10,889 nt of DNA from Promethearchaeota archaeon (GTDB taxonomy: Archaea > Asgardarchaeota > Lokiarchaeia > Sigyniarchaeales > SOKP01), in assembly GCA_004524535.1 (NCBI GenBank), contig SDNY01000120.1:1-10889 (forward strand). The letters run 5' to 3'. This document shows positions 1 to 10,889 of the stretch, one piece after another (the stretch's first letter is position 1; each line of letters starts with the position of its first letter). The position numbers and the translations under genes are program-made. The notes beneath the pieces were generated by a model. The model was given only the letters and a program-made list of their open reading frames with translations. It searched no databases and had not been told where the DNA came from.

Positions 1-75
1 CAAGGAGAAATAATTGAGGTTCCCCATCATATTGCTGTATTTTTGCTGTGTAGAGGGGTTGCTAAGACTGCTTAA
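1..75 (+). CDS. priS: 3' end of a gene, probably the C-terminal domain of DNA primase small subunit PriS (partial)
   Basis: Frame 1 reads QGEIIEVPHHIAVFLLCRGVAKTA-stop (TAA 73-75). This matches the 'Ge.ievP...AvfLlcrG.A' ending of the archaeal PriS C-terminal domain, a fold shared with the GINS B-domain. Only 24 aa are visible. Supported by the GINS-like start at the other end of the insert. Confidence 0.6.
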   Translation, partial: QGEIIEVPHHIAVFLLCRGVAKTA

Positions 76-82
76 GTTAATA

Positions 83-147
83 ATAAATTCTTTCTCTACT
101 TTTTCTTTTTTAAGAATAAAAAAATTTTCTTAATTTATGGATATTAA
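83..147 (+). repeat. 65-bp exact direct repeat, left copy (attL-like or duplicated target)
   Basis: ataaattctttctctactttttcttttttaagaataaaaaaattttcttaatttatggatattaa is identical base for base to 10666-10730. It includes ATGGATATTAA, the start of the ORF at 10720, which here stops after 7 codons. Confidence 0.97.
88..111 (+). terminator. Oligo-pyrimidine (T-rich) tract, candidate archaeal terminator after the priS-like gene
   Basis: ttctttctctactttttctttttt starts 13 nt after the stop codon. Confidence 0.4.
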
Positions 148-388
148 AATTATTTTTTAATAAATTCAAATTAGTAGATTAAAGTATATTTTACTCTTAA
201 TTTGAAAAAAGAATTTAGTCTTAAATTTTAGCTAAAAGAAATTTCTAAAAAAATTGAAAGAAGTTTTATTTTCCCTGAGTTTAATCCCTAGTTGCGTTAA
301 ACAAATTATTAAGAATTTGGTAATATCAGCATGATTTGTAATTTAAACTTCACTACCAATTCCGCCAGAGCCATTATACATGTAAATC

Positions 389-1372
389 CTAAGGTTCGTA
401 TAAAGATAAATCTGGTCTGCCCCATTTGGTGTGATTTGGATATTTTTTTTCCTTAATTTGACGGAATTTTGATGGATATTTTATCCACTCTGGAATTGGG
501 TCAAATCTATTTTCATAAAAACTTAATTCACACAAACCATTTAATTTAAAAATAGAGTCAGGAACAGATTCCAAGCGATTATCCCCTACGTAAAGCCTTT
601 CTAATGACGAAAGATCACCGATCGATTCCGGTAGCTCCTGAAGCTTATTGGAATATAAATATAAATCCTCTAATCTTTTTAAATTACCGATAGATTCAGG
701 GAGGCTTCTTAATTTGTTATGATGTGCCTGGAATCTCCTTAAATTTGTTAAATTGCCGATCGATTTAGGTAACGCGGATAGCTGATTATTGGATATGCTC
801 AAATATCTCAGATTCTTAAGATTTCCAAATGATTCGGGAAGTTCAAGGAGTTGATTATTGGATATGCTCAAATATCTCAGATTCTTAAGATTTCCAAATG
901 ATTCGGGAAGGCGTCTAAGGTAATTTTCATATATTTTTAGTGAAATCAAATTTTTGAGGTTCCCAAACGATTTTGGTAATACTTTTATTTTATTATTGAT
1001 TATGCTTAACCTTTTTAATGAATGTAATTCACAGATAGACTTTGGAAGCGTCTTTAATTTACTTTTGTATATATCCAACTCCTCTAATAACTCTAATCCA
1101 CCAATTGATTCGGGAAGCTCAGTTAAATGATTATTATTTAGGATTAATTCTTTCAGCCATCTTAAATTACCGATTGATTTGGGGAGCAATGTAAGATCCA
1201 CTCCATTGCATTGAACCCTACAAATGTGATTGTCTGTCGTAATAAAGCTTGCTAAGGGTGTGTTTATACCAAATTCAGTAACAAGTGAAAATTCAATATC
1301 TAATTCTTGCTCTAATTCACTAAGAAAAAGTGCCTCTGGTTTCAATAACATAGCTTCTCTGAATTTAATCAT
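389..1372 (-). CDS. Leucine-rich repeat protein (about 10 repeats of 23 aa, LxxLPxSIGNLxxLxxLxLxxNx)
   Basis: Regular LPESIG/LPKSFG 23-aa LRR units through most of the ORF. Likely start is ATG at 1370-1372 (MIKFREA...); the ORF track starts at TTG 1381. A TTTAAATA TATA-like box lies about 30 nt upstream. Confidence 0.95.
   Translation of the reverse strand: MIKFREAMLLKPEALFLSELEQELDIEFSLVTEFGINTPLASFITTDNHICRVQCNGVDLTLLPKSIGNLRWLKELILNNNHLTELPESIGGLELLEELDIYKSKLKTLPKSICELHSLKRLSIINNKIKVLPKSFGNLKNLISLKIYENYLRRLPESFGNLKNLRYLSISNNQLLELPESFGNLKNLRYLSISNNQLSALPKSIGNLTNLRRFQAHHNKLRSLPESIGNLKRLEDLYLYSNKLQELPESIGDLSSLERLYVGDNRLESVPDSIFKLNGLCELSFYENRFDPIPEWIKYPSKFRQIKEKKYPNHTKWGRPDLSLYEP
783..910. 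repeat. Intragenic tandem duplication, 69-bp period (59 bp identical: 783-841 and 852-910)
   Basis: Both copies encode LPESFGNLKNLRYLSISNNQ with identical nucleotides. Confidence 0.95.
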
Positions 1373-1433
1373 GATTTTCAAATAATTTTAATCAATTAGC
1401 TTATTTAAATATTATGAGGGTATGAATTTTGTG

Positions 1434-4400
1434 TTATTTATCTCCTAAATAATTATCTATCTTTTGCTGGGGGTCTTTCTTAGGAAAAGCATTATCTCTC
1501 AGAATATCTAATAAACCATGATCCTTAAGATATCTTTCCCAACCCTTTTCCATTAAATCTTCTCCATATTGAACAGGAAGAATGACCTCAAGCATCTTTT
1601 TATCGATTTCGCTATTTTTCTTTAATTTATTATAATATTTTTCTTTAAATGGTCCGAACGATCCCTTAGCAAAGAATTCAGTAGCATCCTTAAAATTATC
1701 ATAATAGGTCGAAGTGAACCGAATAAATTCAGCAAATTCCTCCTTATTCAATACTAATACATGTTCGAGCATAGGTATTTCATCTTTTGGTCGATATAAA
1801 TCATCTCTAAAAGGCTTTCCGCTCTTTTCTGTACCCGTAAGAACGATAACTAATAACTTATGCTTGCCTTGAAATCCTCTCTGTGCATGTTCGACTATAG
1901 ATTTAGGATCAGTTGTATGGATAAACTCAATATTCATCTGCTTAATATCTCTCATCATGCTCCCTGTTATTTCAAATTCCAGCTGGTCAGTTACTTTCTG
2001 TTTTCTAAAAATATAATTTGCAAAAGCGCTTCCTTCTTCAAGCATGACAGAAACATCAGGTCTGTGTCTATTATATTCAGAAAATGTCTCATAATATGTA
2101 GGCGCTTGCCACTTATCACGTAGATAAGTCAAGGTCCAATAGATATCGCAAATATGTTCAAATCTTCCTAAATTGCTCAATCTCTCTGTATTGATAGTTT
2201 CCAGATTAGAGAATTCTACAATCTCAGGGTAACTATATCCTTCCCTTACTATCGCATCTAAGAAGCCACTATATTTATAATTCCGTAACCACGTATAAAG
2301 AGGAGCCGTATCTGAAGAAAGACTCACACCCTCACCTTCCTTTACAGCTCCAAGAAAATCTTTGTCACCTAAAATCTCTTTCTGTAAAAACAGCGCAAAA
2401 TCTTCAATTGTATGCAAATTGGCATAACGCTGACCATAATACCCTTTTCTTTCTTTAAAATCTTTATAATCAGTTATACTATCTATTGCCATAGAAAGGT
2501 AATTTTTTGCAGTCCCTATACTAATAGAATACATTTCTGTAAGATCATTATATATATCCTTGATATGTTTATATTTAATAGGATCCTCCATCATATCTAA
2601 TAAAGCCATAAGTCTTTCTAATTTTCCTCTTATATTACTTTTAATTTTTCCTTCAAACCCAATCTCTGTTAAGATTTGATCTACACTCAATTTACGCATT
2701 TTCTTATATTTCATTAATTCATGGGTAGCTTTTAAAAAGGAAGCCACATCAACTTTCTTATATGCAGATTTTTGCCTTGAAGCCCCTATACTATGAAAAT
2801 ACGCTCCGAATTTTTGAAGTAAACGTTTAACAAACGTATTTCCATGTCTGTCACTGTATTTATTAAAAAGAAGAGCTTCTAATACTTTTTTAGAAATTCC
2901 AAGGAAATTGTATTGTCTATCGTATTCTGAATAAGATTTAAACTTAATGAAATCTATATTATGCGGGTTTTCAGGCAAAAGTTTATCGTATAATGCCGTA
3001 AGCTCGATATAAGCTTTTATATAATCATCAGAATATCTATGTCGTAGTATATCAAATTTAACTATTTTTTTATGAATTTGCAATCCCTTTTCCTCACCAT
3101 ATTTATTTTTACATGTATCTATAAATCTTTCCTTAATTTCTTTCTTTTTAAGATTGTATTCATCACTTAATTCTCCAAGTGGCTTTGATTGATATAATGT
3201 GACTATATCTAAATCTTCTACTTCACCAATATCTTTTAATAAATTGTCAAGTGCCTCTTCTAAGCTTATTTTAGGTTCTGGCTGACCACGACTACTCTTA
3301 CTTTTCTTTTTGTCTTGTGTATACGCTTCCTTGGGGTCAAACGCTGCTGCTTGTTCTCCTATAACGACTATCGGTCTTAATAAAATAATCTCGCCAGACT
3401 CGGAGATCTCATATGTTCCTTCCAGAAATCCGTCCAAAGAAATAACTTCTCTCAACACTTTACGATTGGCAATAACTTTGAGATTTAGTATTGGATTGAG
3501 TCGATAAGTTTGCTTAATAACCCTTTTGGCTTGACCTAACGGCATTCCCTTCTCTATATATATGAACTTAACCGCCTCATCCGGCGGAACCCCCGCAAGA
3601 CGGAACGCAATCAGTCGGCAGTCCTCCTTGGCAGCTCCCTCTTTAATATACGCCTTTGCTTTATACTGCTCGTACTGTCCCTTACTATTTTTTACCTTAT
3701 AGGTTAAATCTTCGGTCTTGAACTTTATATCCGTCGGGGCGTCTTCGTCGATAAGCTCGACCTTCTTTTCGAGCATGTTTTCAAATACATTCTTCTGCTG
3801 TTCTTCCCAAATCGAAAGACCTGCCTCGTCGTAAATCTTGAAACGGTGATTTAAATCGAATTTGGTCGTTCCGTACGAAGGAATGGGCTTCATTTCATTT
3901 TGAATTTTAGCGAACCCTTCCTGATAAGAGCGTTTGTCTACTAAGTGGTGTTGTCTGGGGTTGTGGACCTCTTCGTTGTCTAACGGTGCGAAGAAATCTA
4001 AAAATTCTTTTATTGCTTTAGCCTTTTCTTCGGCAACTATCTGTTTATATGTTTCTTTGAGCGACTTTTTGGCAGAGTGTTGAGCGTATGCACCATAGGC
4101 AGTGGCGATGGTTCCAACGGCAATTATAGCTCCGATGCCGAAAGTTGCCGCAGCAATAGTAGCAAGAATGGCAACCACTTTTCTCGTTATACCCGCTTTT
4201 CTTGTAATCTCCTTTTGTCTTTGTTTTAATTGTTCTTCCATTTGTATATTTGCCTCACTTTTTTCTGAAGTGGAAGCTTGGTCCTGCTGTTCAATATTAG
4301 TCTGTTGATTAATATTAGGATTTACACCACCAGTAAGGGCTTCTCTGGCAGACTCAGCTACGATACTCCATACAATTTCATCATATCTGTCGCCTCCTAA

Positions 4401-4667
4401 ATCTCTCGCAAACTTGCTGGCAATCGCCTCCACCACAGGATCAAGGAATACCTCTTGTATTGGCTCAGATATAATTGCCCATGTAGCGGTACCGGGCAGA
4501 GCATAAAGAATAGCAGTGCTTAGCACAGTCACAGCCACTGTGTAGGCGATTTCATTTACTTTTTCTTGAGCTTGAACAGCTAATTGGGATTGATAATAAT
4601 ATTCCAGTACGGCAGCCTGAATGTTCTGCATCGCGGCGATCTTGGTAAGTTCGGGATCGTTATTCAC
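1434..4667 (-). CDS. Large multidomain protein, probably N-terminally truncated: two hydrophobic Gly/Ala-rich helices, a ubiquitin-like domain (~aa 351-442), a Lys-rich region and a C-terminal PD-(D/E)XK-like nuclease domain; polymorphic-toxin-like
   Basis: 1077-aa ORF with a GTG start. Hydrophobic segments IAYTVAVTVLSTAILYALPG and VVAILATIAAATFGIGAIIAVGTIATAYGA. Ubl-like RLIAFRLAGVPPDEAVKFIYI...YRLNPIL...GEQAAA. Nuclease-like G(RF)EH...YYE...RPD...NIEF...RGFQ...LLVIVL. The coding call is strong; the domain calls are by eye. Confidence 0.75.
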   Translation of the reverse strand: MNNDPELTKIAAMQNIQAAVLEYYYQSQLAVQAQEKVNEIAYTVAVTVLSTAILYALPGTATWAIISEPIQEVFLDPVVEAIASKFARDLGGDRYDEIVWSIVAESAREALTGGVNPNINQQTNIEQQDQASTSEKSEANIQMEEQLKQRQKEITRKAGITRKVVAILATIAAATFGIGAIIAVGTIATAYGAYAQHSAKKSLKETYKQIVAEEKAKAIKEFLDFFAPLDNEEVHNPRQHHLVDKRSYQEGFAKIQNEMKPIPSYGTTKFDLNHRFKIYDEAGLSIWEEQQKNVFENMLEKKVELIDEDAPTDIKFKTEDLTYKVKNSKGQYEQYKAKAYIKEGAAKEDCRLIAFRLAGVPPDEAVKFIYIEKGMPLGQAKRVIKQTYRLNPILNLKVIANRKVLREVISLDGFLEGTYEISESGEIILLRPIVVIGEQAAAFDPKEAYTQDKKKSKSSRGQPEPKISLEEALDNLLKDIGEVEDLDIVTLYQSKPLGELSDEYNLKKKEIKERFIDTCKNKYGEEKGLQIHKKIVKFDILRHRYSDDYIKAYIELTALYDKLLPENPHNIDFIKFKSYSEYDRQYNFLGISKKVLEALLFNKYSDRHGNTFVKRLLQKFGAYFHSIGASRQKSAYKKVDVASFLKATHELMKYKKMRKLSVDQILTEIGFEGKIKSNIRGKLERLMALLDMMEDPIKYKHIKDIYNDLTEMYSISIGTAKNYLSMAIDSITDYKDFKERKGYYGQRYANLHTIEDFALFLQKEILGDKDFLGAVKEGEGVSLSSDTAPLYTWLRNYKYSGFLDAIVREGYSYPEIVEFSNLETINTERLSNLGRFEHICDIYWTLTYLRDKWQAPTYYETFSEYNRHRPDVSVMLEEGSAFANYIFRKQKVTDQLEFEITGSMMRDIKQMNIEFIHTTDPKSIVEHAQRGFQGKHKLLVIVLTGTEKSGKPFRDDLYRPKDEIPMLEHVLVLNKEEFAEFIRFTSTYYDNFKDATEFFAKGSFGPFKEKYYNKLKKNSEIDKKMLEVILPVQYGEDLMEKGWERYLKDHGLLDILRDNAFPKKDPQQKIDNYLGDK

Positions 4668-5265
4668 CGAGCGATATTTTTCTAATTTAATTAGAAAATT
4701 CGCCGGATTGTTCTTTAATGTGAATTTCCCTAAATTCGATAATAGATTTTTTCAACCAAAAAAGAATTCTAAGACAGCTATCAAAAACACCAAGCAATTG
4801 AAAGACTATTCTGAGGAATTCAGATTTATTGTAGGGCAAAACGATTATATAACTAAGGAGTTTTTTCAATTACTTCATGACTTTCGGACTCGAAAAGTAA
4901 ATCCTAGTAATTTAGAGTTAGGCCAATTAAATAATCCACAAAAACTGTATAATTATTTACGGAATCATCATTGGTCTGTTAATATTCCAGAAGAGTTCTT
5001 AATTGATTGGATCAGTATGAAACTTACGGGACACAAACTTAGTGATATCGATATTTCCGATTTTAACCATATCTTCAATAAGTTAGGCATTTCATATGAT
5101 TTCCTTAAGAATATTGGAAATAAAAGCAATTCTTTACTTAATACAGAAAAAAATCCAAGGAAGAAATCTATCAACGGACCTTCTTCAATTACAGATTTTC
5201 CCCAACTTAAGAAATATATGTTAAAGAGACTAGAAGATATTGAAAGCCTTATAGACGAAAATTGA
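4621..5265 (+). pseudogene. Hypothetical protein, probably the 3' remnant of a longer gene (real coding part from ~4675)
   Basis: Open frame of 214 codons. The first ~16 codons are only the antisense of the 1077-aa ORF, and the next in-frame ATG is far downstream (a TTG at 4708 is possible). The rest has protein-like composition. GC falls at about 4675. Confidence 0.5.
4671..4703. repeat. Inverted repeat at the junction of two divergent ORFs
   Basis: ttttctaatt (4678-4687), t, aattagaaaa (4689-4698): perfect 10-bp arms, flanked by gcga (4671-4674) and tcgc (4700-4703). Confidence 0.7.
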
Positions 5266-5323
5266 GAGATTTAAATATTTTGAATCAATTATTATTTCAT
5301 CTTTCTTTATTATTTTTTTTAAA

Positions 5324-5554
5324 ATGATGTCTGAAAAGAAATACCATTGCCCTCGATGTGGCAACGAAGAAATTGCTGATTATACAGATTCGTTTGATTG
5401 TCCTTCTTGTAACCTTGAATTTGATAAAAAAGATTGTGATGAGTTAGAAGAGTCTCAAATCCTCTCAGTCGAAGAAAAATTAGGAATTATTAAAGGATTA
5501 GGGCTCGATATAAATAAAGAAACAAATTCTTCTAATTATTCAAGGGATATTTAG
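5324..5554 (+). CDS. Small Cys4 zinc-ribbon protein
   Basis: CPRCG...CPSC motif with an acidic tail, 76 aa. TTTAAATA upstream at about 5270. Converges on the next gene with a 1-bp gap. Confidence 0.8.
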   Translation: MMSEKKYHCPRCGNEEIADYTDSFDCPSCNLEFDKKDCDELEESQILSVEEKLGIIKGLGLDINKETNSSNYSRDI

Positions 5555-5555
5555 T

Positions 5556-6269
5556 CTATGAGAGATTAATATTGTTTCTTTTTAAAACCCATTCCTCTAC
5601 TAGAAATTTTTGATTAATACCTTTTTCTGGTTTGAATTTCGAGTGTATTGATGATTTTGGAATCCATACTTCTTGACCTGAATTAAAAACAATAAATAAT
5701 GCCTTCTCTGTTTCAGCTTTAATCGATCCTTGGACTTCAATAATATTTTTTCCTTCAGGAACAGATTGTTTTACAGTATTTATATTCATATCAACTTTCT
5801 CGACCTTTACTTCTGTTTGCGCTTTTGTTGTATTAGGACCATTCTTCTCCAATTTCGATGTATTAGATACTGTTGCGAATTCAATTTTTTCTTTAATTAG
5901 ATGTTTCATAAGTAATTTAAGTATTTCAATCTGAGCTTCACCAAGTAATTTGGAATACTCTCCTATTTTTATCCAGAACTTATTCTCACCATTTTTCTCC
6001 CAATTAAGAGAGATTTGAGTTTTATTTTCTTTATAGGAATGAAAGCCTGACCACGATTCAATCTTGCGTTTTAAGACTTTTAAAATCATAACCATTTCAT
6101 CTAAAGAGACCTTAATGGTCTTACCTTCTCCAGAAGATGGTTTTTCCCATTCGCCATTTTCTTTTTTTTTTATACATTTTATAAAAATATAAGGTTCACT
6201 TTTTGATGAACTACTTATTATCAACCCTGTGGTTTGGCCAAAAAAACTTTGACTATGATTATTTGTCAT
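5556..6269 (-). CDS. Two-domain hypothetical protein: N-terminal domain possibly Whirly/PC4-like (ssDNA-binding) and a C-terminal small beta-barrel (ETEKA...WIPKS...W)
   Basis: Long clean ORF. ATG at 6267-6269 is preceded by a GGTGA Shine-Dalgarno-like motif; the alternative GTG at 6278 overlaps the upstream stop. Two globular segments joined by a low-complexity linker. The fold call is tentative. Confidence 0.75.
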   Translation of the reverse strand: MTNNHSQSFFGQTTGLIISSSSKSEPYIFIKCIKKKENGEWEKPSSGEGKTIKVSLDEMVMILKVLKRKIESWSGFHSYKENKTQISLNWEKNGENKFWIKIGEYSKLLGEAQIEILKLLMKHLIKEKIEFATVSNTSKLEKNGPNTTKAQTEVKVEKVDMNINTVKQSVPEGKNIIEVQGSIKAETEKALFIVFNSGQEVWIPKSSIHSKFKPEKGINQKFLVEEWVLKRNNINLS

Positions 6270-6274
6270 TATTT

Positions 6275-6499
6275 TCACCTTTCTAGATTATTTTTTTTTA
6301 TCTTCTTTATTTTCAATTTGCCATTATGAGTGTTAACGAGATAACGCCAATTATTTAAGGAAGAGAAAGGATATTTATGCCAAATATCTCTTATCATATC
6401 TGGATATAACTTTCCTACTTTTGACACAGATATCTCTAAATATTTACTACTATTTTGGGTTTCTTCTTGCAAAAGATTATTTTCACTTATAGACATCAT
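6275..6499 (-). CDS. Small hypothetical protein (74 aa), probably co-transcribed with the downstream gene
   Basis: ATG start with a TATA-like motif 22-30 nt upstream. The stop overlaps the GGTGA/GTG of the next gene. Confidence 0.65.
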   Translation of the reverse strand: MMSISENNLLQEETQNSSKYLEISVSKVGKLYPDMIRDIWHKYPFSSLNNWRYLVNTHNGKLKIKKIKKNNLER

Positions 6500-6520
6500 A
6501 ATTATAGTTCTATAGCAGAC

Positions 6521-6537
6521 ATATTTAAAGAAAAAAG
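6521..6537 (-). promoter_or_regulatory. TATA-box promoter with T-rich upstream element (cttttttc-TTTAAATA-t), copy 1
   Basis: 17 bp identical to 6925-6941, located 22-38 nt upstream of the ATG at 6499. Confidence 0.6.
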
Positions 6538-6574
6538 TAAGATTTTAAATAATCTAGACTGCTATAATTTTTAA

Positions 6575-6898
6575 TTAACTTGCTTTCGCTTTGCGAACTC
6601 TTAATAGTTTAGAACCAAAAAGTTCTAATTCTTTTATATAGTTTAGTTTTTCCGAGAAGTAAGTAATTTTCACATTAGAACCTGTATTCTTATCAACATT
6701 TCTTACAAAAAAATATTTATGTAGGTATTTGCCAATACACCATCTAATGACGATTCTCGGTTTTTTTCTTTGAGAGCTAAAACACCACCAATCTTTACAA
6801 CGCTTAGAGCAAAATAGATGCGTCGAAGGAGAGTGTTGCGTATTTACTAATCGAACCGGGTTTTTCTTAATAACTTTCCTACAATATTCACAAATCAT
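6575..6898 (-). CDS. Small basic protein with an N-terminal TRASH/FCS-type treble-clef zinc finger
   Basis: CEYC-x(23)-CSKRC, preceded by Phe (FCS motif). ATG start with a TATA-like motif upstream. Confidence 0.75.
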   Translation of the reverse strand: MICEYCRKVIKKNPVRLVNTQHSPSTHLFCSKRCKDWWCFSSQRKKPRIVIRWCIGKYLHKYFFVRNVDKNTGSNVKITYFSEKLNYIKELELFGSKLLRVRKAKAS

Positions 6899-6924
6899 TT
6901 TCTCAATACCTATGTCTATTCGTA

Positions 6925-6941
6925 ATATTTAAAGAAAAAAG
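6925..6941 (-). promoter_or_regulatory. TATA-box promoter with T-rich upstream element, copy 2
   Basis: Identical 17-mer to 6521-6537, located 27-43 nt upstream of the ATG at 6898. Confidence 0.6.
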
Positions 6942-6984
6942 AATAAAAAATTTAAATTAGAAGTTCTTTATGTTATTTGGCAAC

Positions 6985-7115
6985 AAAAAAAAAAAAGACT
7001 CCTGCCGCACCCTGGATTTTTGTCTTTTGGTTAGTGCACTTAGGTGCGCTATGATTTTGCCCTGCTTATCCTATATCATTTATGACCTTTTTATTAGGTC
7101 TCGCTGGCAGGAGTC
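6985..7115 (-). ncRNA. Candidate ~120-nt structured RNA (multi-branch fold) ending in a U12 tract
   Basis: 10-bp closing stem gactcctgcc (6997-7006) / ggcaggagtc (7106-7115). Internal stems gcacc/ggtgc (7007-7011/7043-7047), atgat/atcat (7051-7055/7075-7079) and gacct/aggtc (7084-7088/7096-7100). A12 at 6985-6996 is U12 on the minus strand. TTTAAAAA on the minus strand at 7139-7146. No family recognised. Confidence 0.45.
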
Positions 7116-7120
7116 ATCTT

Positions 7121-7146
7121 TTTAAAATTTCTATAGAATTTTTAAA
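7121..7146. promoter_or_regulatory. 26-bp near-perfect palindrome, candidate operator
   Basis: tttaaaatttctatagaatttttaaa: 12 of 13 positions pair around the centre of ctatag. Confidence 0.4.
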
Positions 7147-7265
7147 TTAGCTTCAAAATTATATTTATAATATATTCTTCAGGAGAAAAAAAAAACACAT
7201 ATTGAACTTCTTCTTTTATCTTTCATTAATTTTCCAGACACTTATGATTTAAATTAATAAAATTT

Positions 7266-7968
7266 ATGAGTATCCAAATGCAGTCTAAAGATTTTTTAGA
7301 TTCAAAAGATATAAGAAAAGACAGAACAAAGACTGTTCAAGGCAATAATAATTTAGATTCAGATCCCAATTCTTTGAAATGCCAAGAGTGCGGATCCACA
7401 ATTATAAAGAATTCAGAGCTTGGGGAGTCTTGCTGTTCAAAATGTGGGCTAATCACACAAGAGAAGGAAATAGAAAAAAAAGGAAACAAACAATTATAAT
7501 TTAAAAAGAAGCGTTAAACATAATAGGCATCCATCTAATAGAGTCCGTCAATTGAGAACTGGATTTTCGGAGATATTACGAATTGGAAATAATCTTGGTT
7601 TATCATCTCAGGTTATGAATGAAGCACAACTTCTCTTTGTGAAGGCTTACAATAAGAAATTACTAATAGGTAGGGGCGCCATCAAGATTGCGGTAGCAAG
7701 TTTATATATTGCTTGTCGGAGAATTGGTATATTAAAAACCTTTAAGGATTTAATAGATAGACCAGAATTGAATCCTAAATCAATTAAGAAAACAGTAACT
7801 ACATTAATTCTCTCATTTAACTTAAAACTTCAGACTTCTCAACCTAGTTTCTTTGTTTCTTCTTTTATCTCCCAATTGTTCCTTTCTTTATCTTACTCCA
7901 TATTTCAAGAAATTTTTCCACGCATTTTTCCTTTAAAGCATCGCCATCAGGCAGATCACAAATTTTGA
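7266..7968 (+). pseudogene. tfb: Divergent transcription factor B (TFB/TFIIB) homologue, frameshifted and C-terminally truncated
   Basis: 7266-7499 encodes the TFB zinc ribbon (CQECGS...GESCCSKCGLI). The +1 frame, open from 7474, encodes cyclin repeat 1 (LGLS...KAYNKKLLIGRG...ASLYIACRR...KTFKDL...P.FFVSSFISQLFLS). One fewer A in the A8 run at 7474-7481 fuses them. Similarity ends at about 7887 and cyclin repeat 2 is missing. Confidence 0.8.
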
Positions 7969-8215
7969 CAATCTTATCATAATAGAATTCAATTTCTCCT
8001 GACATATAAGCAAAACCTTTGTTTTTTCGGTTCTTCAAGATCAATTCTTTATTGTCTTTACGATATTGTTTAGCTCTTTTTTTCATAGCTTCCTTATGAT
8101 TCTCATAATATGTTATTTTCCTGCACTCGTCATTGCAAAATTTTTGCGCGTTATGGGTTTGAATAAAAATTCCCCCGCATCCTACACACGTTTTCAGAGT
8201 TTTTGGAGGTTTCAT
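7865..8215 (-). CDS. Small basic protein with an N-terminal Cys4 zinc finger (CVGCG...FCNDEC) and a Lys/Arg-rich helix; possibly 3'-truncated
   Basis: 116 aa. CxxC...FCxxxC followed by YYENHKEAMKKRAKQYRKDNKE, a pattern common in virus and mobile-element proteins. TTTTTC-TTTATAAAT upstream at 8255-8269. Overlaps the tail of the TFB ORF. Confidence 0.65.
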   Translation of the reverse strand: MKPPKTLKTCVGCGGIFIQTHNAQKFCNDECRKITYYENHKEAMKKRAKQYRKDNKELILKNRKNKGFAYMSGEIEFYYDKIVKICDLPDGDALKEKCVEKFLEIWSKIKKGTIGR

Positions 8216-8429
8216 TTTTTACACGTTTTTTATTTATTATCGTATAATCCATTTATTTATAAAGAAAAATTTTTCTTCTCTCAGAAAATAAGTTTCAAAA
8301 TCGGATCATAAAGACAATTTTTACAAATTCTTGAATTATCTTTTTCAAAAATTTTACATACTCTTTTCTTTTATATAATCAAGATGATTACCAATTTTAT
8401 CAAGATATAATTTTCAGAGAGAGTGTAGT

Positions 8430-10340
8430 ATGACAGAAAACCAGACATCCAAAGATTTTGATAGTAAGAAAGAAAAAATTGAGTATTTAGTGAAAGAGAT
8501 TCAAAGACACCGCGATTTATACTATAATGACATTCCAGAGATTTCCGATGCTAAATATGATTTATTGGAAGATGAACTTAGAAAATTAGATCCAAGCAAC
8601 CCTATACTTACCACGATAGGAGAGGACAGTTCAGAGCTTTTCGAGAAAAAAGAGCATATTATTCCAATGGGTTCACAAGATAAGGTAACCACGCCGGAAG
8701 ACTTCTTAAAATGGGCAAGAAAAAGGCAACTTCCAAAATACATCATTCAATTCAAACTAGATGGGATAAGTATAGAACTTCAATATGACAAAGGCACTTT
8801 CATTCGAGCAGTTACCAGAGGAGATGGAAATGTCGGAGATGACGTGTCGGCAAATGTAAAAAAAATGGAAGGATTTTTACCTCACCTTAATTCCAATTTT
8901 ACTGGGGCCACAAGAGCAGAGATTTTATTATTTCACGATATTTTTGAGAAGAAATATTCTGATAAACAGAATTGTAGAAATGCTGCGGCAGGGATAGTAC
9001 GGAGAAAAGACGGAAAAGGCTGTGAAGATTTAAACCTTATTCATTATGATTCTATTTCTTTAGATGAAAATGTAGAGTTCACTTCTGAAATTAACAAGCT
9101 GAAATGGTTAAAGGAAGAGGGATTTCCCACAATAAAGACAAAGACAGTTAAAACCCCCCAAGAAGTTATTTCAGTGAGAGAAGAAGTTATGAACAAAACC
9201 CGGGATATGCTAGAATACGATATTGATGGGCTGGTGATAAAAGGAAATAAGATCGATTTAGAAGATATGAAGAGAGCAAGACCTATGAAACAGATCGCGT
9301 TTAAGTTTCACGCAGAAGAGATTGAAACCACCTTATTAGATGTCGAATGGAGTATTAGCGGGGCAAATTATACTCCTGTGGCTATCGTGGAAACCGTGAA
9401 TTTAATGGGAACAAATGTAAGTCGAGCCAGCCTTGCCAACCCCAATTTAATCGAGGAACTTAACCTAAAAATCGGCAGTGAAGTGGTTATAAGTAAAAGA
9501 GGAGATATTATCCCCAAGATTGAGAGAGTTATCAAGACACCACCCAATGCGAAAGACATAAATACGCCTGGGATCTGTGAAGTCTGTAAAACCGACCTTA
9601 TAAATGAAGGTACAAGATTATACTGCCCAAATGAAGAGTGCCCTAAAAGGCAGTATCATAGAATAACAAAATGGATAAAGAAATTGGATATTAAACACTT
9701 TAGCGAGAAATTAATGCTGAAAAAATTATTTGATACAGGGAAAGTCAGAAAGATCTCTGATCTCTATTCATTGAAAGTTTCGGATCTTACTAAATTTGAG
9801 GGAGTTAAGGAAACCTCTGCGAAAAAGGCATTAGACAACCTATATTCTGTTAAAGAAGTTCCATTGGCAAAATTTATTGCCGGGTTTGATGTGGAAAACA
9901 TTGGAGAAAGAATCGTGGTTAAAGCAGTGAATGATAGGTTTGGTTCCCTTGAGAAAATTTACAACGCCACAATACAAGACTTATCGAGAGTGGAAGGGTT
10001 CGCACACATCACAGCCAAGAATCTATATGACGGATTACATAAATTGTATCCTGATATGGTTGAATTATTAAATACAAACAAAATAAAAATTAAGGAGATT
10101 AGTATGTCAGGCAAATTAGAAGGGAAGAGTTTTTGTTTTACGGGCAAATTGGAAACAATGAAAAGGGCAGAGGCAGAGCAGATTGTTATCGAGAACGGAG
10201 GAGAGCCAAAGAAAAGCGTCGTGAAAGATTTATCCTATTTGGTGACAAACGAAACCACGCCTACCGCTAAATATAAAAAAGCCCAAGAACAAGACACTCA
10301 AATAATTTCAGAAAAAGAATTTTTGGATATGGTCAAATAA
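8430..10340 (+). CDS. ligA: NAD+-dependent DNA ligase
   Basis: Domain Ia (YYNDIPEISDAKYDLL), motif I KLDG, AVTRGDG..GDDVS.N, NCRNAAAG, YDIDGLVIK, AFKF, OB fold (RASLAN, KRGDIIPKI), Cys4 finger (CEVC...CPNEEC), HhH motifs and a C-terminal BRCT (GKSFCFTG). Confidence 0.98.
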   Translation: MTENQTSKDFDSKKEKIEYLVKEIQRHRDLYYNDIPEISDAKYDLLEDELRKLDPSNPILTTIGEDSSELFEKKEHIIPMGSQDKVTTPEDFLKWARKRQLPKYIIQFKLDGISIELQYDKGTFIRAVTRGDGNVGDDVSANVKKMEGFLPHLNSNFTGATRAEILLFHDIFEKKYSDKQNCRNAAAGIVRRKDGKGCEDLNLIHYDSISLDENVEFTSEINKLKWLKEEGFPTIKTKTVKTPQEVISVREEVMNKTRDMLEYDIDGLVIKGNKIDLEDMKRARPMKQIAFKFHAEEIETTLLDVEWSISGANYTPVAIVETVNLMGTNVSRASLANPNLIEELNLKIGSEVVISKRGDIIPKIERVIKTPPNAKDINTPGICEVCKTDLINEGTRLYCPNEECPKRQYHRITKWIKKLDIKHFSEKLMLKKLFDTGKVRKISDLYSLKVSDLTKFEGVKETSAKKALDNLYSVKEVPLAKFIAGFDVENIGERIVVKAVNDRFGSLEKIYNATIQDLSRVEGFAHITAKNLYDGLHKLYPDMVELLNTNKIKIKEISMSGKLEGKSFCFTGKLETMKRAEAEQIVIENGGEPKKSVVKDLSYLVTNETTPTAKYKKAQEQDTQIISEKEFLDMVK

Positions 10341-10345
10341 TCTAT

Positions 10346-10394
10346 ATTTTTCTTTTTTTTCATTTTATATTTCTTTCTTTTTTTTCTTTTCTTT
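10346..10394 (+). terminator. Long T-rich tract downstream of ligA, candidate archaeal terminator
   Basis: Several oligo-T runs directly after the TAA at 10340. Confidence 0.55.
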
Positions 10395-10665
10395 AAATAA
10401 ATAGAATGTTTAATATCTGTAAACATTTTTTCTTTAGTCATATAATTCTTAATAAAAATTAGCAGGTTTTCAGGGACTATTGACTATGAGGACGATTATA
10501 CTGAAACTATTGATAAAAAAAGAGTTTCTTAAAATTTCAGCGTTATTTATTAGACAGAGTAAAGTAAAAAAATTAAGAAATCAGAATATTCCGCCAGAAG
10601 TGTTCTTGTAGGATTTTCAGAGTATTTGTGGTCAGGATTGGAGTGCGTGAGATGAAGGAATATAT

Positions 10666-10730
10666 ATAAATTCTTTCTCTACTTTTTCTTTTTTAAGAAT
10701 AAAAAAATTTTCTTAATTTATGGATATTAA
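10666..10730 (+). repeat. 65-bp exact direct repeat, right copy (attR-like), containing the start codon of the downstream gene
   Basis: Identical to 83-147; ATG at 10720-10722. Confidence 0.97.
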
Positions 10731-10889
10731 GACCGAATTTGAGAAGTTATATCAATATTGGCTTAATGAATTTAATAATAAAGATTTGACTCATTTAACT
10801 AAAGAACTGTTTAAAGAATTTAAACAAACTCTTCAAATTCTTAATAATACAAAATTAAATGAAGTAGAAAATAATAAAATAAAATCCAA
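10720..10889 (+). CDS. 5' part of a probable GINS subunit (Gins15/Gins51 type), running off the window end
   Basis: Not in the ORF track. Reads MDIKTEFEKLYQYWLNEFNNKDLTHLTKELFKEFKQTLQILNNTKLNEVENNKIKS..., resembling the 'eLy..W..E.....L..L...Fy' N-terminus of GINS A-domains. Synteny with a priS-like gene supports the call. Confidence 0.6.
   Translation, partial: MDIKTEFEKLYQYWLNEFNNKDLTHLTKELFKEFKQTLQILNNTKLNEVENNKIKS

Follow-up and report, generated by a model that had tools for sequence, protein, structure and literature searches.

In Loki-type Asgard archaea, descriptions of integrated elements are few, and it was by their integrases that the known ones were recognized. We describe here a block of DNA, called the island in what follows, that parts the replication genes priS and gins51 in the genome of a Promethearchaeota archaeon. 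The stretch that was analysed, called the window, is the whole of contig SDNY01000120.1, 10,889 nucleotides (nt) long. The island is bounded by an exact direct repeat of 65 nt and is missing from every relative in which the site can be judged. It is most likely a horizontally acquired insertion, the decayed remnant of an integrative element, or 'cryptic integrated element'.

According to a survey of Thaumarchaeota elements (PMC6563490), the attachment (att) sites of crenarchaea have lengths of 29-69 bp, and intergenic and protein-gene targets, as well as 'cryptic integrated elements', are known in archaea. Like the elements of that survey, the island is a multi-gene insertion with direct repeats, verified against uninterrupted relatives, in a target that is not a tRNA gene and with a mostly unannotated cargo; its 65-bp att-like repeat falls within the crenarchaeal range. 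Contrary to them, it has an Asgard host and none of the integrase or other hallmark genes through which they were found, and its repeat covers the upstream region and first 11 nt of a gene, that is, the 5' end, whereas the protein-gene targets presented in the survey are 3'-distal.

The mobile genetic element Yucahu-i of Atabeyarchaeia (PMC11529989) shares with the island an Asgard host, a similar size (10,867 bp for Yucahu-i) and a unique site of low GC repeated at the ends. Its populations mix cells with and without the element, a behaviour to which that of the island may be likened. However, Yucahu-i has an 11-bp att site, a tyrosine integrase, a Holliday-junction resolvase and a circle, whereas the island has a 65-nt repeat, no integrase, and no circle that could be detected. 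The aloposons of Heimdallarchaeum (PMC8813620) are also integrated elements of Asgard archaea with a large protein of no known function, but they have tandem genes for proteins of 3,000-6,000 amino acids (aa), a MinD/ParA-like ATPase and a tRNA target; the largest open reading frame (ORF) of the island has 1077 aa, and there is no ParA and no tRNA. Bacterial genomic islands that lack an integrase (bioRxiv 10.64898/2026.01.13.699239) resemble the island in their att-like repeats, in the absence of mobility genes of their own and in a possible dependence on functions supplied in trans. That report deals with bacteria and conjugative helpers, whereas no helper was identified for the island.

The window constitutes contig C70 of the source metagenome-assembled genome (MAG), denoted G000, which has 198 contigs and 3.66 Mb. 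Contigs are joined in this assembly by overlaps of 149 nt, and the window stands in the chain C72(+), C70(+), C57(-). It was compared with a relative of the same genus (G008), with further relatives (G002 and G005), with a public metagenome contig (L019) and with two sequencing runs of one study (X1 and X2). The features of the insertion site, in window coordinates, are as follows.

1..75, forward strand: 3' end of priS, the last 24 codons and a TAA stop at 73-75; the gene begins on C72, whose tail overlaps window 1-149.
83..147, no strand: attL-like left copy of the exact 65-nt repeat; the one copy that G008 has at its uninterrupted site is 100% identical to it.
137..160, forward strand: decoy start of gins51, an ATG and six codons followed by TAA (158-160), read from the sequence.
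148..10665, no strand: island body, 10,518 nt, absent between priS and gins51 in relatives.
10666..10730, no strand: attR-like right copy of the exact 65-nt repeat, with the spacer/promoter region and the start of the intact gins51.
10720..10889, forward strand: 5' part of gins51, the rest of which is on C57 (PF22090, Gins51_C, 52.8 bits on the 218 residues held by C57).

A preliminary description of this stretch, made from its letters alone, had placed the block between priS-like and gins-like genes. Profiles run on the extended contigs bear this out: the 416-aa ORF of priS matches PF01896 (DNA_primase_S) at 54.8 bits, and the match to PF22090 makes the second gene gins51, which is 90% identical to its orthologue in G008. 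Since C72 also encodes PCNA (PF00705/PF02747) and priL (PF04104), the site lies in a PCNA-priL-priS / gins51 cluster; aIF2-alpha comes next after gins51 on C57, on the opposite strand.

A repeat search of the window finds positions 83-147 and 10666-10730 to be 100% identical, in two copies that lie 10583 nt apart, just as the preliminary description had them. In 100 windows simulated with a first-order Markov model, the longest exact repeat measured 12-18 nt, with a mean of 14. The bases next to the two copies are unlike both on the 5' side (A at 82, T at 10665) and on the 3' side (A at 148, G at 10731), so that the repeat is exactly 65 nt long. No similarity extends outside the copies: local alignments of the flanks score no better than shuffles, the fractions of shuffles reaching the score being 0.24 and 0.52. 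Together with the unlike bases, this means that the duplication is sharply bounded.

The repeat spans the priS-gins51 spacer minus 7 nt, plus ATGGATATTAA, which are the first 11 nt of gins51. Both this extent and the stop that closes the left copy's reading frame after seven codons, already noticed in the preliminary description, are confirmed from the sequence. Inside the repeat, centred about 25 nt before the ATG of gins51, is an A/T-rich stretch that may be read as TATA-like, in the manner of archaeal promoters. Allowing up to three mismatches over the whole G000 genome, the 65-mer has three matches, the third being at the end of C72: it is merely the 149-nt overlap of the tail of C72 with the head of C70. 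The 65-mer is thus no dispersed repeat, and a multi-copy genomic repeat, for which the preliminary description had allowed, is ruled out.

In G008, window positions 1-149 (97% identity) and 10666-10887 (95%) map to one and the same place, overlapping by the 65-mer: the alignment runs through priS, the 65-mer and gins51 without interruption. The same uninterrupted layout is found by alignment in G005 and G002, and in L019, with 96% identity on the left side and 94% on the right. A search of 40 relatives with the gins51 protein yielded 28 loci in 27 genomes, and priS lies directly upstream of gins51 in 26 of them; the other two end less than 200 nt upstream of gins51, before priS could appear, and cannot be judged. 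The gap between the aligned ends of the two genes is 84-327 nt, and 872 nt in G038, whose gins51 alignment starts at residue 101. Nothing was found between priS and gins51 in any of the 26 testable loci.

Run X2 contains a Logan contig of 704 nt that joins position 148 to position 10732. It has 6 and 13 differing letters on its two sides, so that it comes from a relative and not from the G000 strain; the island itself is almost entirely missing from X2 (share 0.03). By these alignments the island is a genuine insertion relative to every testable relative, and the inserted block of the preliminary description is upheld. It provides an example of a clean, comparatively verified insertion amid the PCNA-priL-priS-gins51 cluster, where an essential gene has had its 5' end duplicated in att-like fashion.

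An exact, bounded duplication of the target, together with relatives in which the target is uninterrupted, is the signature of att recombination between circular DNA and a chromosome. In the model that we favour, a circular DNA would have carried an attP site, some 65-67 nt copied from the host spacer and gins51 start, which would have recombined with the identical chromosomal attB by means of a site-specific recombinase. The crossover would have duplicated the 65 nt, so that priS keeps its 3' flank and gins51 its upstream region and start codon, while the left copy would from then on head a dead-end ORF of seven codons. The recombinase would have been lost in internal deletions that also truncated three other genes, or else supplied in trans; the truncation of these three genes makes such a loss plausible. 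The inferred parts of the model are the circular intermediate, the recombinase, its loss, and an island-free haplotype that coexists with the island.

Since all of the upstream region of gins51 lies within the repeat, together with the start codon, the gene keeps its own signals at the right junction: the host gene stays intact, as the preliminary description had stated for integrative elements in general. Unusually for an insertion, the site is neither a tRNA gene nor a 3'-distal region, but the promoter and 5' end of a replication gene that is essential; a tRNA scan of the window found none, hence no tRNA target. The mobile-element reading is plausible but unproven, and the element itself is probably dead.

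The window is a short contig taken whole, its ends lie within 160 nt of the repeat copies, and the k=31 Logan contigs of X1 break at the repeat (record 1 starts at 118), so that the junctions are without direct read support. This may raise the suspicion of an assembly chimera, in which C70 would have been joined at a 65-nt sequence common to the chromosome and to an unrelated molecule, for example an episome. We hold a chimera to be highly improbable. Overlaps of 149 nt imply graph words more than twice as long as the repeat, and both junctions are in one contig, which extends beyond the repeat copies into the chromosome for 82 and 159 nt. Word depth is uniform over the pieces of the island in X1, at about 48-50, and the GC of the island is close to that of the genome (0.326 versus 0.304). 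Moreover, the positions of the contig ends are accounted for by an alternative path through the empty site.

The evidence for this path lies in the bases next to the repeat. Where G008, G005 and G002 carry the uninterrupted site, AAACGAATAC and, next, GAGAAG come after the 65-mer. In G000, the right copy is followed by GACCGAATTT and then by GAGAAG, and the left copy by AAT. The right side thus has one more feature.

10731..10740, forward strand: cluster of 4 substitutions (10731, 10733, 10739 and 10740) by comparison with G008, G005 and G002, where the site is uninterrupted; they alter codons 4, 5 and 7 of gins51.

With the substitutions, codon 5 of gins51 (N) becomes T and codon 7 (Y) becomes F; the next 40 nt hold one difference from G008. 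L019 is of the ancestral type at this cluster, save for one further change. The 149-mer common to C72 and C70 ends at 149, the last base before the island junction, which reads 65-mer + AAT, parts from the ancestral empty site, which reads 65-mer + AAA; and the 149-mer common to C70 and C57 starts at 10741, the first base past the last of the four differences. In a graph with k=149, an ancestral-type empty path would exit after 149 and re-enter at 10741: both contig ends match exactly. The alternative unitig predicted in this way has 306 nt, under the minimum contig of the MAG, which is 3062 nt. In the MAG, 98 terminal 149-mers are likewise common to just two contig ends.

The positions of the contig ends suggest that the sample probably also contains an island-free haplotype, which would be identical for 149 nt or more to either side and have ancestral-type codons 4-7 in gins51. 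With ancestral-type bases after the 65-mer, this haplotype is not the precise excision product of the island: such a product, or a circle, would place the contig breaks at 147 and 10814 instead. If the haplotype is true, the locus is a natural system for measuring island gain and loss in an uncultivated population. The four substitutions appear to be linked to the island haplotype; a recombination tract derived from a donor could have left them, or else a scar of repair.

Families were assigned to the ORFs of the island with Pfam, PHROGs, NCBIfam and PADLOC. Several results weigh against the remnant of an integrative element, the first being that these scans find no integrase, transposase, relaxase, replication initiator or virion gene in the block. 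When the whole genome was searched in six frames with PF00589 and PF00239, no match fell in the window, and an integrase split in the manner of SSV (Sulfolobus spindle-shaped virus) is not found, with no ORF longer than 42 codons across the computed circular junction. The four substitutions by the right copy are not accounted for by a simple att crossover. Exact-pattern scans for an occupied site returned one metagenome contig and one genome contig, both uninterrupted, and no second occupied site; an exact 43-mer had 0 matches in viral contigs; scans of IMG/VR viral contigs with the 1077-aa ORF and with the ligase of the island found no relative and no related island; and no free circular form turned up in the collections scanned. 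The k=31 contigs of X1 list no empty-site or circle joint, a result that is uninformative on absence since these contigs break at the repeat. Lastly, several of the cargo genes have their paralogues among the ordinary chromosomal genes of Loki archaea, and the block could be captured chromosomal DNA instead of a dedicated element.

The preliminary description had proposed an element that targets the 5' end of the gins gene. Its insertion and duplication stand, but a mobile 'targeting' does not follow, as no mobility, replication or virion gene, no second site and no circle were found. The absence of a recombinase from the block, which it had also reported, holds in the family scans as well as in the six-frame searches.

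The same absence is one reason to consider host homologous recombination as the only agent, either through a Campbell-type crossover of a circle with 65-67 nt of captured sequence, or through import of the whole island allele out of a related strain, by a double crossover in the conserved priS and gins51 flanks. Genome-wide, PF00589 has only two matches, a 316-aa ORF on C126 (139.7 bits) and a 585-aa ORF on C144 that is below threshold, and PF00239, the serine recombinase family, has none. The cargo, too, consists largely of diverged paralogues of Loki chromosomal genes. Four substitutions that seem linked to the island, with 149 nt inferred to be identical on each side, would fit a donor tract that ends inside gins51, but this linkage rests on the inferred haplotype. 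The AA that follows the left copy matches the ancestral codon 4 of gins51 (in G008, G005, G002 and L019), and the incoming homology may thus be 67 nt long; however, base composition gives such a match an estimated chance of about 1 in 8 in AT-rich DNA. A sharp and exact 65-nt duplication without trailing homology is, on the other hand, the classic att signature, and a double-crossover import accounts for the spread of the island but not for the origin of the duplication. We consider host recombination as the sole agent the main rival of the favoured model, a possible but somewhat unlikely explanation. Among the three origins listed in the preliminary description (mobilization in trans, decay, or repeat-mediated capture), the evidence favours decay, with host-recombination routes open.

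The two identical copies of the repeat would also fit a recent or recurrent event, and an island-free haplotype probably coexists in the sample. It may be asked, then, whether the island is still mobile, through a recombinase acting in trans or through one of its own that went unrecognized: four of its ORFs are without a family assignment, and the 585-aa protein of C144, with its sub-threshold PF00589 match, is a candidate for the former. Against this stand the ancestral-type bases after the 65-mer in the inferred alternative haplotype, and contig ends that are not at 147 and 10814. Nothing ties the C144 gene to the repeat site; as to the family-less ORFs, the largest belongs to a multi-copy family as a truncated paralogue, and that of 214 aa represents only a fragment of a gene. 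We judge continued mobility quite unlikely. A combined scenario is also unlikely in our estimation: a recombinase-less Asgard island that mimics 65-67 nt of the gins51 promoter and start, is moved by host recombination or by a divergent recombinase in trans, is still segregating, and delivers a bacterial-type NAD-dependent ligase into the replication cluster.

The 585-aa ORF (C144:14803-16560; L030:6803-8560, reverse strand) matches PF00589 at 22.7-24.7 bits, for a cut-off of 27.1. It adjoins a 614-aa ORF that is GmrSD_N-like and is, besides the ORF on C126, the sole recombinase candidate in the genome.

With respect to element classes, the locus has the flanking direct repeats of an integrative element and an uninterrupted target in relatives, and lacks an integrase of its own. 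As to transposons and casposons, no transposase, Cas1, PolB or Tns family is in the block, and no inverted repeat pairing the ends 148... and ...10665 is among the 25 longest of 161 pairs. A duplication of 65 nt is far longer than the target duplications typical of transposons. As to proviruses, the PHROGs matches are limited to leucine-rich repeat (LRR), zinc-ribbon and NAD-ligase families, and no virion or plasmid hallmark was found; PADLOC reports nothing meaningful on the island. The locus is not an aloposon, a transposon, a casposon or a provirus.

The contents of the island are listed below.

389..1381, reverse strand: 330-aa LRR protein, encoded immediately downstream of the 1077-aa gene (PF23598, PF13855).
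1434..4667, reverse strand: 1077-aa ORF, 5'-truncated member of a multi-copy family with paralogues on C155, C117 and C153.
4689..4692, no strand: rearrangement junction with AATT common to both sides, joining two 5'-truncated genes head to head.
4693..5265, forward strand: 214-aa ORF, a gene fragment holding the C-terminal half (residues 196-389) of a 392-aa family (blastp, G008 L023:9485-10660).
5324..5554, forward strand: 76-aa zinc-ribbon protein, with weak zinc-ribbon matches only and a 75%-identical paralogue on C27.
5556..6278, reverse strand: 240-aa protein, by sequence comparison a diverged paralogue (66%) of a conserved chromosomal gene near an SMC-like gene.
6275..6499, reverse strand: 74-aa ORF with no relatives found by Pfam scan and genome comparison.
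6575..6898, reverse strand: 107-aa zinc-finger protein, with a weak zf-FCS match and a 77%-identical homologue on G008:C6.
6997..7117, forward strand: GC-rich element of about 121 nt, structured and small-RNA-like, with oligo-T after it; multi-copy and with covariation.
7266..7968, forward strand: fragmentary TFB/TFIIB, with a zinc ribbon (7266-7499, PF08271) and one cyclin repeat (7552 to about 7890, PF00382).
7865..8215, reverse strand: 116-aa zinc-ribbon protein with a sub-threshold NinG-like N-terminus.
8430..10340, forward strand: intact NAD-dependent DNA ligase of the LigA type, 636 aa (PF01653, 127 bits; PF03120; PF14520, HHH; PF00533, BRCT).

The ligase has its adenylation, OB fold, HhH and BRCT domains in order and at full length, and matches phrog_3869 over residues 12-635 with an E-value of 3e-145. 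This bacterial-type ligase is single-copy in G000, which also has the usual ATP-dependent ligase at C140:3380-3976. Of 39 relatives, 6 have a full-length homologue with at least 50% identity, and an intact one is missing from all eight genomes of the same genus; fragments that contain stops are found at G014:C92:9388-10361 and G006:C236:2775-3080. With this patchy distribution and fragments in two relatives, LigA behaves as a mobile accessory gene. Around the homologues in G018 and G014, no long direct repeats bounding an island were found.

In G008, homologues of the genes of the island lie dispersed on different contigs and have 75-84% nucleotide identity, compared with 94-97% for the flanks. 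All in all, the content of the island is foreign, mosaic and partly decayed. As such, it shows a route by which accessory genes (an NAD-dependent ligase, an LRR protein and a polymorphic-family cassette) enter Asgard genomes beside core informational genes.

Neither Pfam nor PHROGs, NCBIfam or PADLOC has a match for the 1077-aa ORF. Alignment with its paralogues, which measure 1472-1570 aa, sets its residues 1-442 against their residues 610-1053; its C-terminal part of about 635 aa is unique. The long paralogues (G000 C155:70-4488, C117:70-4782 and C153:4-4629) share about 1050 N-terminal residues at about 70% identity, have unrelated C-terminal tails of 400-600 aa, and are each followed directly by a small ORF. 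Pfam finds no family in these three paralogues or in the 392-aa protein of G008. Partial copies lie at the ends of C32, C43 and C48 and on C150, and several contigs break inside such genes.

Conserved N-termini, unrelated tails and small downstream ORFs recall the polymorphic toxin systems with standalone C-terminal cassettes (PMC3482391), and the copy in the island would correspond to a 5'-truncated cassette, with 442 conserved residues and a tail of its own. No toxin, immunity or trafficking domain was recognized in the family: the likeness to the systems of that source is architectural only, and we do not claim membership.

In the conserved part of the 1077-aa ORF, DNA identity with C155 reaches 97-99% over 370 nt, which suggests a recent recombination between copies. 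A homologue search with the ORF, in which 8000 candidates were scored, gave one match (E-value 2.5e-27, 16% of the query covered), and the ESM Atlas no usable match. Sequence matches in the PDB for the 1077-aa and 240-aa ORFs were rejected as marginal, with E-values of 0.002 and 0.06. An AlphaFold2 model of the C-terminal 635 aa, computed with no alignment, was discarded, with a mean predicted local distance difference test (pLDDT) score of 37.8 and a predicted template modelling (pTM) score of 0.25.

At the rearrangement junction, window positions 4561-4692 are identical at 131 of 132 positions to the interior of the C155 paralogue, and the similarity to the interior of the 392-aa gene of G008 starts at 4689. 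The first similarity runs to 4692 and the second begins at 4689, so that four bases, AATT, belong to both. The 214-aa ORF beyond the junction is 60% identical to the 392-aa protein over 194 aa and has no Pfam family.

The LRR protein has a 73%-identical paralogue on C188. At about 785-875, its gene contains two adjacent LRR units of 69 nt with an exact common stretch of 59 nt, which indicates a very recent duplication or conversion of units within the gene. This stretch is the second-longest exact repeat of the window, which has no other long exact repeat besides the 65-mer.

The copies of the chromosomal paralogue of the 240-aa ORF on C139 and G008:C28 are syntenic orthologues, 92% identical. 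The 240-aa ORF was tried as a marker of an element family and rejected, its closest paralogue being this syntenic chromosomal gene. The TFB pieces cover only positions 8-49 and 128-236 of the 312 positions of NCBIfam PRK00423: the linker and the second repeat are missing.

The small-RNA-like element has five copies in G000, the other four being at C157:20721-20859, C123:47227-47363, C7:44241-44381 and C162:8964-9079, and several copies in most family-level relatives, at 76-90% identity (loci L061-L080). It folds into a closing stem of 9-10 bp with three internal hairpins, and RNAalifold applied to 18 copies gives 26 pairs, 8 of them with compensatory changes. A scan of the whole window with Rfam, this element included, has no match at E<=1. 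It looks like an undescribed multi-copy small RNA of this archaeal family, or a transcribed element akin to a miniature inverted-repeat transposable element (MITE). A 51-aa ORF at 6970-7125 was rejected as a gene in favour of this structured element.

A domain common to archaeal PriS and GINS has been described previously. In the window's host, the C-terminus of PriS (residues 387-414; L004 (C72) 9505-10752) matches PF22090 below threshold, at 23.3 bits for a cut-off of 27. From this sub-threshold match, PriS and Gins51, the products of the two genes that the island parts, may share a domain.

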